Assembly: GCF_008000775.2 (NCBI RefSeq)
Contig: NZ_CP042905.2
Location: 330,001 to 362,000, forward strand
Length of the DNA: 32,000 nt
Origin: Promethearchaeum syntrophicum
GTDB taxonomy: Archaea; Asgardarchaeota; Lokiarchaeia; Sigyniarchaeales; Promethearchaeaceae
Reading direction: 5' to 3'
Part shown: one piece after another, positions 26,481 through 30,791 of the stretch
How positions within the stretch are numbered: position 1 is the first letter of the stretch
Layout of the letters: each line of letters starts with the position of its first letter
Notes under the pieces: model-generated
Database searches by the model: none
Told to the model about the DNA's origin: nothing
What the model saw: only the letters and a program-made list of their open reading frames with translations
Translations under genes and position numbers: made by a program

Positions 26481-29400
26481 GTGACACCTACCTCATCTTC
26501 AAAAGCAAAAGCTAAAATTAGGCTTTGGAAACAAAATTTCCTAGATTTATCAAATCGTAACCCACAACTTAATTTTTCTACTAAAAGATATATAGAAGTA
26601 ATCTCTCCAAGTTGCTCAACTATTTTTCGGATTCTCCTTGTTATGGGACAAACCTGCACATTTCCATCCGTCTATAAACCTCCTTCTAGAAAAAAGCAAA
26701 GAAAAAAATCGGTATCTGATCAACAGAAAACACCATTTAACGTTAATCCCGAGCCTGAATTATCTGATCCTTTAAAGGAAACACATCGAATAGCTCTTGA
26801 AAAAATTAAAGAAAAAGCCCGATTAACTGAATTTATTACAGAATTAACTGATTCAACATTAAGGACTAGATTTAAGAAATTTCTTCAAAAAGCAAAGGAA
26901 ATGGAAGAAGAACGAGGTGTTAATGTATTATACATTACCTTTGGATTACTAAATTGGATTGATGTAGGGGATAATATTCCTATGAAAAGTCCATTACTAT
27001 TTGTTCCAGTAAAAATATCTTTAAAACCGCTTGAAATTGAGATCCTGGATGATGAAGTAATGGTAAATCCTGCTTTAAAAGAAAAATTAAAAGGAGAAAA
27101 TAAAAAACTACCTCTATTTCCTGAGGAATTTGATTCCATTAGTTTTGATCGGTATTTAAAAGAAGTTTCAGAATTAATTTCACGAGACTCAGGTTGGAAA
27201 TTAGAAAAACGATCATTTATAGGAACATTTGCTTTTACTAAAGCAGCTTTATTTGAGGATCTCGATGATCATGAAGATTTAATACTTCGCCATCCAATAG
27301 TACGCGCGATTGCAGAAGAAAAAGGATTCGCGGAAGAAAAAGAGAATCTACCTGATATTGAAGAGCTTAGTGATAATTTAGATCCCACAACAAGTTATTC
27401 TATTTTGGATTGTGACTCAAGTCAAATGGAAGCCGTAATATATGCCAAATCAGGGAGTTCTTTAGTAATTCAAGGTCCACCAGGAACAGGAAAGAGTCAA
27501 TGCATTTCAAATATAATTGCAGAATGTATGGCAGTAGGTAAGAAAGTTCTTTTTGTTGCTCAAAAGCGCGCCGCCCTTGATGTAGTAAAAAAAAGATTAG
27601 ATACTTGTGGAATTGGTCCATTTTGTTTACAAGTACATTCACAGAACGCGAATAAAATCGCTATTCTTAAGCAAATTGAACAGAGTATGAACATTGATAC
27701 AGAAGGCATAAAAATTAAAAAAGGGAAATTTCAAGAACTTGGAATATTAAAAGAAAGATTGAATGATTACATAACTTCTACTCAATCTCCCTACGGTTTA
27801 ATGAAATTGAGTTTTTATGATATAATAGGTCGAGTTTTAGCCTTAGATGATATACCATTATTAATTTCTGAATTTAAGGACCCAAAAAATGTAACTGAAA
27901 AGGAATTTATAGAAATCAAAGATCTTTTTGGGCAATTGGAGTTATTTAGAGATACTTTAGAACATTATGACCAAAATCCCTGGAGTCTTGCTAAAGCAAA
28001 AATTAAATTTCTTTTACAAATTGCAAAGGAATTACAGCTTGCATTGAATAAAATATTATATTCATTTCAATATGTAAACGGACAAATAGGCTCTGAATTA
28101 AAAATTCTTAATGTGAAATTTCCCAATGGGGTTAATGAAAATGGAGAAGTTCCAGAAAATCGAACCCAATGGGAAAAAAATATTATAAGGGCAAATTATT
28201 GGATATCTGCCTTGGAAATATTTAATTTATGGCAAACTTGGGAGATAGATTATTCGGATCTTAACCAATATTTTGAATTAGACTCTATAATAAATTTCAA
28301 TGAATTTTCTGAATTTTTTAAAAGTTTTGAGCAAATAAATTTAGCATATGAAGCGGAATCATCTCCCTCACTTTCGATTACAAGTCTTCTTCTTACAAAA
28401 TTAAATTATTATATTGAGAAAGTAAATAAATTAAATAATCGACTCATAGTTTTCAATTTAAAATCTGGTTTGAACCCAATTCTGAATGATGAGGATTTTC
28501 AAGAATATTACGATTTTTTTAGTTTATTCAATGAAAATGCTCTAACTCTAGATGTTGATTTATTAATTGCCCGATTTACAACAGATTATGCAGGAGTTTT
28601 AAAAAAACATGGTCCTGAATATAATGCGGATAAATTAGATATTTTAAAATGCTTACGAACAAAAGCTAAAAAGCAATCTGTATTAGGATTATTGAATAAA
28701 ATAAAAAACTTCCAAATATTTTCTGGTAGACCTGATGGGTTGTCTCTCGACACTATAAAACTTATCATAGATGATTTTAATTTACTTTCAGATGAATGGA
28801 AAGAAATTCACCCACTTGAAAATTTCCTTAAGCCCGTTTTAGTTATTGAACCTCTTGCTCTTAACCAAAGACAAGATTTATGGGAAAAATATGAGAATTT
28901 TGCTAAACGATGGCTAAAAGATCTACCTCATTTGAACGAATGGTTTGAAATTGTTAAAATTGAAGATAAACTTGAAAAGCTTGGCTTTAGTGGTATTTTG
29001 GAAAAGATCAAGAATCAAAGATTTGAAAGTAAGAATAGTACTAATTCCGAAATTCTTGAAATCCCACTTGAGAAGCTATTTGAGAAGGCTTTTTATCACA
29101 AATTATATGAAGATATTATATCTACGTTACCGATTATAAACAATTTTGACATAAAATACCATATGAAAACAATTGAGAAATTTAGGAAGGTTGATAAAGA
29201 AATTCTGGAAATAAATCGCTTGCGAGTAATTAAAAAATTATATGATTTAAGACCTAAAGTTGATTTAAATATTTCAGATTCTCTTCTTGCTCAATCTGGG
29301 TTCATAAAACGTGAATTAAAAAAGAAAAGGAATGTAAAACCTCTTAGATATAGTTTTAAAGAAGCTAAGGAATTCATCTCCCAGTTAAAACCATGTTTTA

Positions 29401-30791
29401 TGATGTCTCCCTTAGCAATCGCAAATTTTCTGCCGATTGAGGAATTTAACAACTATTTTGATTTAGTAATTTTTGATGAAGCATCCCAAGTTACTCCTGA
29501 AGATGCTATTGGGGCAATTCTAAGAGGTAAAAGTCTAATAGTTGTTGGAGATTCACAACAATTACCTCCCACAAATTTTTTTACTGCAAGTAGTATTAGC
29601 GGTGATTCAGATTTTGATGGCCTCGATGAACTCGATAGCAACTTGCAAACAATGGAAAGCTTGTTAGATGAATGCACAGGTATCGGGTTTCGAGAAAAGA
29701 TGTTGAAATTCCATTATAGGAGCCGAAAGGAAGGGTTAATCGCCTTTAGTAATCAACAATATTATAACGGAAGACTTTTTACATTTCCCGATATATCAAA
29801 TGAAGATAAGGCAGATCAAATAACTAATATCGAGACTGTTAGATCAGACTTGGATAAATTAGAAAACTACTCAAATATTGATGATTTGACGGCCATTGAT
29901 TTCAGATATATTAAAGATGGTGTGAAAATTAAAGCAAAAAATGTCATTGAAGCAGAATTTGTTGCACAAGCCGTAATTAATCATTATAAAAGCAATCAGA
30001 AATATGGTACCAATTATAGTTTAGGCATAGTTGCTTTTAGCGTAGCTCAACAGGAAACGATTAGGTCAGCATTAGAGAAGTTGATAAAAAAGGATCCTTC
30101 AGTAGAATCCATCATGAATAAAGATGAAGAAGAAGGATTATTTATTAAAAATTTGGAGAGTGTGCAAGGAGATGAACGAGATTTCATATTTTTTAGTGTT
30201 GGTTATGCCAAGGATCCAAAAGGTAAGTTATCTCTAAATTTCGGTCCTTTAAACAGAAGTGGTGGATATAGAAGATTGAATGTTGCAATCACTCGTGCGC
30301 GTTTTCATATAAAACTATTTGCTTCATTTTTACCTAGCGATATTAATATAGAGAAAGTTAAAGCGCGGGGTTTAAGTGATCTAATTGGCTACATGAGATA
30401 TGCAAGAACCAATATATTGACCAAGGTTAAATCTGTTTCAAAGAAAAAAATCTTTGAATCAGATTCTTTTGAATCATGTGTTAAATTATCATTAGAAAAA
30501 GCAGGTTTTACTGTTAAAACTTTGATAGGGCATTCAAATTTTCGTATAGATCTTGCTATTATAGATCCAAAAAATCCTTCTAGGTTTATTCTTGGATTGG
30601 AATGTGATGGTGGGTCCTATAAAGCAGCAAAAAATACTCGCGATAGAGACCGAATTAGAAATGAAGTTTTAGATGGTTTGGGGTGGGAAATATTACATAT
30701 ATGGGGTCCAGATTGGTATATCAATAGAGAAAAAGTAATAAGAAAAATTAAGAGAAAAGTTAACCAAAGAATGAAAAAAATCGAAGTTTAA
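26481..30791 (+). CDS. DUF4011 / Upf1-like superfamily-1 helicase / Vsr(DUF559)-type PD-(D/E)xK endonuclease-fold fusion protein (1436 aa)
   Basis: GTG start. The DUF4011-like opening is RLWKQNFLDLSNRNPQLNF and VNVLYITFGLLNW.

SF1 motifs:
- I: GPPGTGKSQ (nt 27474-27500)
- II: VIFDEASQ (DEASQ at nt 29475-29489)
- III: VVGDSQQLPPT
- HYRSRKEGLIAFSN
- V: VQGDERDFIFFSV
- VI: GYRRLNVAITRAR

About 660 aa of helical insert separate motifs I and II. The C-terminal nuclease fold reads FRIDLAIIDP...LGLECDGGSYK...DRDRIRNEVLDGLGWEILHIW. Confidence 0.85.
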   Translation: MTPTSSSKAKAKIRLWKQNFLDLSNRNPQLNFSTKRYIEVISPSCSTIFRILLVMGQTCTFPSVYKPPSRKKQRKKSVSDQQKTPFNVNPEPELSDPLKETHRIALEKIKEKARLTEFITELTDSTLRTRFKKFLQKAKEMEEERGVNVLYITFGLLNWIDVGDNIPMKSPLLFVPVKISLKPLEIEILDDEVMVNPALKEKLKGENKKLPLFPEEFDSISFDRYLKEVSELISRDSGWKLEKRSFIGTFAFTKAALFEDLDDHEDLILRHPIVRAIAEEKGFAEEKENLPDIEELSDNLDPTTSYSILDCDSSQMEAVIYAKSGSSLVIQGPPGTGKSQCISNIIAECMAVGKKVLFVAQKRAALDVVKKRLDTCGIGPFCLQVHSQNANKIAILKQIEQSMNIDTEGIKIKKGKFQELGILKERLNDYITSTQSPYGLMKLSFYDIIGRVLALDDIPLLISEFKDPKNVTEKEFIEIKDLFGQLELFRDTLEHYDQNPWSLAKAKIKFLLQIAKELQLALNKILYSFQYVNGQIGSELKILNVKFPNGVNENGEVPENRTQWEKNIIRANYWISALEIFNLWQTWEIDYSDLNQYFELDSIINFNEFSEFFKSFEQINLAYEAESSPSLSITSLLLTKLNYYIEKVNKLNNRLIVFNLKSGLNPILNDEDFQEYYDFFSLFNENALTLDVDLLIARFTTDYAGVLKKHGPEYNADKLDILKCLRTKAKKQSVLGLLNKIKNFQIFSGRPDGLSLDTIKLIIDDFNLLSDEWKEIHPLENFLKPVLVIEPLALNQRQDLWEKYENFAKRWLKDLPHLNEWFEIVKIEDKLEKLGFSGILEKIKNQRFESKNSTNSEILEIPLEKLFEKAFYHKLYEDIISTLPIINNFDIKYHMKTIEKFRKVDKEILEINRLRVIKKLYDLRPKVDLNISDSLLAQSGFIKRELKKKRNVKPLRYSFKEAKEFISQLKPCFMMSPLAIANFLPIEEFNNYFDLVIFDEASQVTPEDAIGAILRGKSLIVVGDSQQLPPTNFFTASSISGDSDFDGLDELDSNLQTMESLLDECTGIGFREKMLKFHYRSRKEGLIAFSNQQYYNGRLFTFPDISNEDKADQITNIETVRSDLDKLENYSNIDDLTAIDFRYIKDGVKIKAKNVIEAEFVAQAVINHYKSNQKYGTNYSLGIVAFSVAQQETIRSALEKLIKKDPSVESIMNKDEEEGLFIKNLESVQGDERDFIFFSVGYAKDPKGKLSLNFGPLNRSGGYRRLNVAITRARFHIKLFASFLPSDINIEKVKARGLSDLIGYMRYARTNILTKVKSVSKKKIFESDSFESCVKLSLEKAGFTVKTLIGHSNFRIDLAIIDPKNPSRFILGLECDGGSYKAAKNTRDRDRIRNEVLDGLGWEILHIWGPDWYINREKVIRKIKRKVNQRMKKIEV

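Follow-up and report, generated by a model that had tools for sequence, protein, structure and literature searches.

The window analysed here is a 32,000-nucleotide (nt) stretch of the Promethearchaeum syntrophicum chromosome (contig NZ_CP042905.2, positions 330,001 to 362,000, forward strand). It contains, at 26481..30791 on the + strand, a complete helicase-nuclease gene (DUF4011 / superfamily 1B (SF1B) helicase / MTES_1575) that starts with GTG and encodes a protein of 1436 residues. The open reading frame (ORF) is intact, with no internal stops on translation, and its product is identical, letter for letter, to QEE15056.1 / WP_147661981.1 of P. syntrophicum MK-D1, which NCBI names only as a 'DUF4011 domain-containing protein'. 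Its modules all lie on the + strand. The N-terminal DUF4011 alpha/beta domain (26481..27410, residues 1-310) was delimited from the Pfam match, the AlphaFold2 model and conservation. It is followed by the N-terminal part of the first helicase domain, RecA1, with the Walker A motif (27411..27635, residues 311-385; Pfam, motifs and PDB sequence matches), by an all-alpha insert of about 600 residues inside RecA1 (27636..29435, residues 386-985; AlphaFold2), and by the C-terminal part of RecA1 together with RecA2 (29436..30350, residues 986-1290), which carries the DEASQ, GDSQQLPP, VQGDERD and GYRRLNVAITRAR motifs and was defined by AAA_11/AAA_12, TIGR00376 and the invariant columns. A C-terminal PD-(D/E)xK nuclease of the MTES_1575 / Vsr / DUF559 type closes the chain (30468..30755, residues 1330-1425; Pfam and motifs).

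The catalytic motifs of both the ATPase and the nuclease are intact. On the helicase side, these are the Walker A sequence GPPGTGKS (residues 332-339, with K338; nt 27474-27497), motif II DEASQ (residues 999-1003; nt 29475-29489), GDSQQLPP (residues 1023-1030), FHYRS (residues 1077-1081), VQGDERD (residues 1228-1234) and GYRRLNVAITRAR (residues 1262-1274). The nuclease contributes IDLAI (residues 1356-1360), LECDG (residues 1373-1377) and GWEILHIW (residues 1401-1408). The Pfam matches cover the chain in the same order: DUF4011 at residues 20-203 (E=1e-27), AAA_19 and AAA_30 over residues 313-374, a split AAA_11 match with its best stretch at residues 986-1031, AAA_12 at residues 1060-1277 (E=3.6e-16) and MTES_1575 at residues 1330-1425 (E=3.2e-26, 91.7 bits vs a cutoff of 38.2), with a weak DUF559 match (E=0.005). 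TIGR00376, the IGHMBP2 family model, scores 92.6 bits. The combination of Walker A, DEASQ, GDxxQLPP, QGxExD and arginine-finger motifs with the AAA_11/AAA_12 matches places the motor in SF1. A preliminary description of this DNA, made from the sequence alone, had proposed a DUF4011 region, a Upf1-like SF1 helicase, a helical insert and a Vsr/DUF559-type PD-(D/E)xK nuclease; Pfam, the motifs and AlphaFold2 bear out these calls, every motif it quoted is present, and the gap of about 660 residues that it gave between motifs I and II measures exactly 660.

No substitution occurs in any helicase motif, or at the nuclease residues D1357, E1374, D1376 and H1406, among 12 orthologs that reach down to 47% identity; the domains are therefore not chance matches, and both helicase and nuclease are under purifying selection. 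K338 and LECDG, named earlier as the targets for mutagenesis, are well chosen. The modules evolve at different rates. Among those of the 12 orthologs with less than 60% overall identity, the RecA core retains 64-89% identity, the nuclease 48-59%, the DUF4011 domain 46-57% and the insert 35-45%. For the N-terminal part of RecA1 (residues 311-385), identity among orthologs is 71-99%. The insert is thus folded and retained, yet, at 35-45% vs 64-71% for the helicase core, it is the fastest-evolving module, as one would predict if its partners vary, a point that we count in favour of an immune role. Judged from its sequence, one chain combines an intact Upf1-like SF1 motor, an intact Vsr/MTES_1575-type nuclease and two family-specific modules.

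These two modules, the DUF4011 domain and the insert of about 600 residues, are both confidently folded in the AlphaFold2 models and lack solved structural relatives. In the DUF4011 model (residues 1-310; mean predicted local distance difference test (pLDDT) score of 86.6), we observe an alpha/beta fold broken by a low-confidence basic loop. Residues W16, D22, N27, E144, G146, N148, G155, W159, P171 and N196 of this domain are conserved family-wide. The loop itself (26658..26765, +; residues 60-95; ...SRKKQRKK...) is rich in lysine and arginine, falls to a pLDDT of 51-52 at residues 71-90 and is probably disordered according to the model. It sits where the Pfam DUF4011 model is interrupted in the anti-phage protein Hhe too (see below). 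Foldseek gave no significant relative of the DUF4011 domain in the PDB (best E=0.95) or among the BFVD viral models. We also considered whether this domain could be a second PD-(D/E)xK fold, given that its order of helices and strands resembles alpha-beta-beta-beta-alpha-beta, and rejected the idea on the lack of a fold match and of an acidic residue in the second strand. The insert (modelled as residues 375-990; mean pLDDT 87.8) is nearly all alpha-helix, the longest helices running to about 40 residues, in agreement with the helical character first proposed for it, and it has no fold relative in the PDB by Foldseek (best E=0.04, TM<0.2). In a sequence search of the PDB, the matches were SMUBP-2, UPF1, SEN1 and DNA2, i.e., generic Upf1-like cores only, and no solved structure of any member of the DUF4011 helicase-nuclease family was found.

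Profile searches place the protein in a family that has already been named. Taking PADLOC assignments as model scores, to which PADLOC's own coverage rules were not applied, the top model is PDC-S37 (PDLC05009; 1057 bits, E=0), followed by Hhe (PDLC02194; 494 bits in two stretches), MkoA (115 bits) and MkoC (95 bits), the last two on the helicase core only. PDC-S37 is the best PADLOC model for orthologs and near relatives as well (e.g., P0008 with 1086, P0062 with 1323 and P0017 with 1104 bits); across the Asgard orthologs and near relatives, scores run from 1086 to 1453 bits for PDC-S37 and from about 500 to 575 bits for Hhe. Two equivalog models of NCBIfam also align: NF058533, 'anti-phage protein ProA', at 1035 bits (cutoff 1500), and NF042953, 'DUF4011 domain-containing anti-phage protein Hhe', at 719 bits (cutoff 2000). 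All five relatives tested (P0047, P0058, P0071, P0017 and P0062) likewise stay below the ProA cutoff, and ProA outscores the NCBIfam Hhe model in every one of them. The ProA alignment forms a single colinear stretch, from residues 5-1432 to profile positions 352-1708 of 1903, so that the homology runs through the helical insert; about 350 N-terminal and 195 C-terminal positions of the profile have no counterpart here. PDC-S37 has the same domain order, and the protein matches its 1550 positions in two stretches that leave out the C-terminal 200 or so, which are covered in the DUF3320-bearing relatives P0017 and P0047. The Pfam scan found no DUF3320 in the protein, although most distant relatives carry it. 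The P. syntrophicum protein has neither the DUF3320 tail nor the N-terminal extension of ProA.

The features common to the superfamily, namely an N-terminal DUF4011 domain, an SF1 helicase split within RecA1 and a C-terminal MTES_1575/Vsr-type nuclease in one chain, are all found here, and Pfam recovers the same layout in Hhe, P0017, P0036 and P0062. By its profile scores, we class the protein as a sub-threshold, ProA-like superfamily member of the PDC-S37 type and not as an Hhe equivalog. Though intact, it is unexceptional within a helicase-nuclease family of very large size: the candidates scored include more than 5492 homologs and, with residues 1-990 as the family-specific query, at least 4921 representatives of 50%-identity clusters match (E<=1e-30). 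The preliminary description was mistaken in stating that this architecture has no assigned function, as PADLOC models exist for Hhe and PDC-S37, NCBIfam equivalogs for Hhe and ProA, and bona fide Hhe has the same layout. The novelty it presumed for the fusion does not hold either. The fusion architecture is already catalogued as anti-phage, within a helicase-nuclease defence superfamily that ranks among the larger ones on record.

The closest comparison with a studied system is provided by Hhe (Gao_Hhe / HheA), for which we used the 1911-residue protein of Klebsiella plasmid pM941-a (locus L089) as reference. The two proteins share the same layout, with DUF4011, split AAA_11, AAA_12 and MTES_1575 in one polypeptide. 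In BLASTP, they align over 628 columns with 34% identity (E=2e-97) and over 353 columns with 31% identity (E=8e-41), which correspond to the DUF4011/RecA1 and RecA2/nuclease regions. The inserts, about 930 residues in Hhe vs about 600 here, cannot be aligned by BLASTP. On the PADLOC models, the Klebsiella protein scores 4293 bits for Hhe (1-1911/1911) and 1265 for PDC-S37, whereas the P. syntrophicum protein scores higher on PDC-S37 than on Hhe. Their genomic settings also differ. The Klebsiella gene lies on a conjugative IncF plasmid, in a defence island next to a type I restriction subunit, two DUF262 genes, IS66 elements and a DUF1778-GNAT toxin-antitoxin pair, whereas the gene studied here is chromosomal and syntenic, away from defence islands and mobile elements.

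Functional data exist for hhe of the E. coli type, a single-gene helicase and nuclease phage defence in the PhageMaP study, in which seven T7 class II genes of DNA metabolism are candidate triggers and Bas63 g40, toxic in hhe cells only, is a further one (10.1101/2024.10.10.617714). Such a set of triggers suggests that what is sensed is the activity of phage DNA metabolism and not one particular protein. By analogy with Hhe, we favour an immune role for the protein in this lineage, as a single-chain helicase-nuclease of the Hhe superfamily, and put the probability at roughly 0.55. The protein would then act like Hhe, and its gene would be a core, constitutively resident immune gene of the lineage rather than island cargo.

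The preliminary description had instead drawn an analogy to Mokosh and Nhi, of which this protein would be an effector with a swapped nuclease. The MkoA and MkoC matches, and the fact that all three are SF1 helicases of defence systems, are consistent with such a kinship. However, these matches are limited to the generic helicase core and lie about 10-fold below that to PDC-S37, no phospholipase D (PLD) domain of the kind that accompanies the COG1112-type helicase in Mokosh is found in the protein, and no Nhi model is among the PADLOC matches at E<=0.1. On these grounds, we rejected membership in both systems. With a much closer named family available, the analogy is unnecessary, being replaced by direct homology to Hhe, ProA and PDC-S37, and a swapped-nuclease effector of this type appears very improbable.

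Orthologs of the gene occur in metagenome-assembled genomes of other Promethearchaeum (88-90% identity), in Ca. Lokiarchaeum ossiferum (55%), in Ca. Harpocratesius repetitus (50%) and in uncultured relatives (47-53%), the last three groups spanning 47-56% overall. These loci share a block with the order LacZ (-), ThiS-like gene (+), gene for a 144-residue protein of no known family (+), helicase (+), gene for a 213-residue protein of no known family and, further on, a tRNA_bind gene. A second paralog in Ca. Harpocratesius repetitus (L017, contig positions 4143293-4167195), 34% identical, lies at a different site and has no ThiS-like, 144-residue or LacZ neighbours. The block neighbours are kept across at least three genera, and the helicase, LacZ and the 144-residue protein rank the loci in one and the same order of divergence, which speaks for joint inheritance of these genes from the ancestor that the genera share. 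The gene is chromosomally fixed, vertically inherited and outside any defence island; this conserved, non-defence neighbourhood is its one unusual trait. Both cultured Lokiarchaeia, P. syntrophicum MK-D1 and Ca. L. ossiferum, have an intact ortholog at the same chromosomal site outside defence islands.

Synteny of this kind, with divergence in step with the neighbours, is usual for housekeeping genes and unusual for defence cargo, and it is the first of several observations that weigh against an immune role. The preliminary description had proposed to survey the genomic context of homologues and counted a conserved housekeeping-type context as evidence against defence, and such a context is what we find. 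Pfam and PADLOC scans recognise no defence gene within the 32-kb window, where the neighbours serve metabolism or transport, confirming the absence of defence-island hallmarks noted there. Housekeeping genes (SerRS, LSM, Hsp70/DnaJ and ribosomal proteins) also adjoin three homologs of greater distance, of which two are probably Asgard and one comes from another archaeal genome. As to the family assignment, the protein scores below both NCBIfam equivalog cutoffs, PDC-S37 is a candidate and not a validated system, and our literature searches found no paper on 'ProA' as an anti-phage protein. These searches likewise returned no paper on PDC-S37 and nothing relevant for HheA/Gao_Hhe, and the supplements of an Asgard defence census make no mention of Hhe or Prometheoarchaeum.

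The main alternative is a housekeeping enzyme of genome maintenance or nucleic-acid quality control, acting in the style of DNA2, SEN1 or UPF1 and clearing the flaps, R-loops, stalled replication intermediates or aberrant transcripts of its own cell, with Hhe/ProA defence as one specialised branch of the family. We hold this to be possible, though somewhat unlikely. Besides the syntenic block kept in Promethearchaeum, L. ossiferum and Harpocratesius, with the same divergence rank as the neighbours, and the window free of recognised defence neighbours, it accommodates the homolog P0062, which has a UvdE-like / AP_endonuc_2 gene directly upstream and a ribosomal-protein operon directly downstream. 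It also accommodates the scarcity of the family in viruses, with only 13 matches, all distant, in 2.9 million viral contigs and one matching record in a phage collection. Elsewhere, the family often looks genus-core: in P. aeruginosa, a DUF4011 gene (PA14_RS11765) is core in every isolate and forms one flank of the defence hotspot cDHS1 (PMC10250203), in Dactylosporangium the flanks are conserved in up to 10/10 other loci, and on Ralstonia megaplasmids, with 105 matching records, many of the matches listed occupy a similar position. However, what functional data the superfamily has all concern phage defence, the core gene of P. aeruginosa lies at the border of a defence hotspot (PMC10250203), the region just downstream of the Asgard gene varies among relatives and once holds a SIR2-TPR gene, and the fast-evolving insert is atypical of a housekeeping enzyme. 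That the earlier reading had left a housekeeping role open was reasonable in light of the conserved synteny.

The variable region downstream, between the helicase and the tRNA_bind gene, spans 14870-16954 in L001, 14651-16489 in L002 and 15220-19917 in L004, and carries NosD/beta-helix and Peptidase_C25 genes and, in one genome (L004), a SIR2_2-TPR gene. As a slot, it resembles the one beside the P. aeruginosa core DUF4011 gene, cDHS1: in both cases, a large core DUF4011 gene stands at the edge of a variable region, a likeness drawn from the description of PA14_RS11765 and not from sequence relatedness between the two genes. Unlike cDHS1, the Asgard stretch holds mostly surface-protein genes, and SIR2_2-TPR is its sole defence-like gene. 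A broader formulation, which we regard as rather unlikely, concerns Promethearchaeales, the order with the nearest relatives of eukaryotes in culture. There, the protein would be no mobile defence cargo but the product of a vertically inherited core gene that either surveys the cell's own nucleic acids (flaps, R-loops and aberrant replication intermediates) or serves as a fixed immune 'anchor' next to a variable slot, possibly with the ThiS-type and 144-residue proteins as partners. It would thereby be a prokaryotic counterpart, by function and not by descent, of surveillance enzymes of the DNA2/SEN1/UPF1 type. Like those of P. aeruginosa, Dactylosporangium and probably Ralstonia, the Lokiarchaeial gene speaks for a lineage-core status of many DUF4011 helicase-nucleases, and it raises the question of whether 'anti-phage' is the ancestral, or the sole, role of the family.

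Upf1-like SF1B helicases use ATP to translocate 5'-3' on single strands, and by analogy, the motor of this protein may do the same. As a plausible mechanism under the favoured immune role, the enzyme would work as a single polypeptide in which the DUF4011 domain and/or the helical insert restrain the enzyme or recognise a nucleic-acid structure, thereby gating or targeting the motor. The ATP-driven motor would load on a single-stranded region and move 5'-3', and the tethered nuclease would cut the DNA being tracked. From the homology to Hhe, the enzyme would probably attack intermediates that arise when invading viruses or other mobile DNA replicate or recombine, with the result that the invader is lost or the infected cell is arrested.

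With the eukaryotic and archaeal helicases of the Upf1-like SF1B group (UPF1, IGHMBP2/SMUBP-2, SEN1 and DNA2), the best sequence matches among solved structures, the protein has the helicase motifs in common, and DNA2 is likewise a helicase-nuclease fusion. The similarity to Upf1-like SF1B helicases is limited to the motif regions, residues 301-407 and 991-1038 of the protein, and none of the four has a DUF4011 domain, a 600-residue insert or a C-terminal Vsr-type nuclease. The comparison does not indicate a specific Asgard-eukaryote relationship of the helicase.

Directly upstream of the helicase gene, on the + strand, lie a gene for a ThiS/Urm1-like ubiquitin-fold protein ending in ...AAGGG (25614-25925) and, 4 nt after it, the gene for the 144-residue protein (25930-26364); we describe both as context and do not claim that they belong to a system with the helicase. 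The 144-residue protein has no Pfam or PADLOC match, and the pair as a whole has no match in PADLOC. At 47-68% identity across genera, the 144-residue protein is the best-conserved neighbour of the helicase. Using hidden Markov models of both proteins, we found the pair beside every ortholog locus with an examined upstream flank (14 matches, including the window) and beside none of the examined loci of more distant homologs. The spacer that precedes the helicase gene in the window is 117 nt long and contains a T-tract (26385-26396, +) and, about 50 nt before the start codon, the A/T box TAAAAAAATATATAG (26423-26437, +). The spacers of most orthologs contain similar elements. We read the T-tract as a putative archaeal terminator of the upstream gene and the A/T box as a candidate TATA-type promoter of the helicase gene itself.

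This arrangement would allow the helicase-nuclease to be the effector of a three-gene module, together with the ThiS/Urm1-like protein, with its C-terminal GGG, and the 144-residue protein, in a surveillance system linked to a ubiquitin-like modifier. In all ortholog loci with an examined upstream flank, and in no distant-homolog locus examined, the three genes adjoin one another in the same orientation, the first two are only 4 nt apart, and the spacer before the helicase shrinks to just 23 nt in L006 (the locus of P0014). Moreover, another archaeal homolog (P0062, 32% identical) has a ThiF / 80-residue / UQ_con / JAB cluster 1.5-4 kb upstream (L088, 5724-9689), a series that would correspond to E1, possibly a ubiquitin-like protein, E2 and a deubiquitinase. 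However, LacZ and the gene for the 213-residue protein are equally co-conserved, so that plain synteny can explain the linkage, the spacer of 115-150 nt with T-tract and A/T box in most orthologs suggests separate transcription, no E1, E2 or JAB gene was found in the window, and the pair is without a PADLOC match. Given the equal co-conservation of LacZ and a spacer with the look of a terminator and a promoter, we retain such a module only as a minor and improbable alternative.

The G+C content of the window, about 30%, agrees with its origin in an Asgard archaeon, as does the Gtr1/RagA-type GTPase described below. Besides the helicase, the window encodes a GH2 beta-galactosidase, a cupin, a Znu/Mnt-type ABC transporter and a DtxR-like repressor, besides the ThiS-like protein, as well as a HAD hydrolase, CoA-enzyme activases, an acyltransferase, PadR/2TM, MFS transporters, DUF2961 and SDR proteins. 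PADLOC returned no meaningful match for ten unassigned or nearby ORFs, the only hit being a weak one to JetC (E=4e-4) on a coiled-coil ORF, and no tRNA genes or Rfam families were found in the window. Two MFS transporters, DUF2961, SDR, the GH2 beta-galactosidase and the cupin form what resembles a sugar-utilisation cluster at 13652-22190; the LacZ gene remains beside the helicase block across genera. At 6512-9958 (-), a BcrAD_BadFG ATPase gene and two DUF2229 'CoA enzyme activase' genes stand in a row, with the acyltransferase downstream at 10071-10997. Two abutting ORFs of 638 and 580 residues, at 45-1961 and 1962-3704 (+), have no Pfam or PADLOC match. Finally, a small GTPase of the Gtr1/RagA type, a family that we take to be a eukaryotic-signature protein typical of Asgard archaea, is encoded at 5170-6111 (-; Pfam E=2.6e-22).

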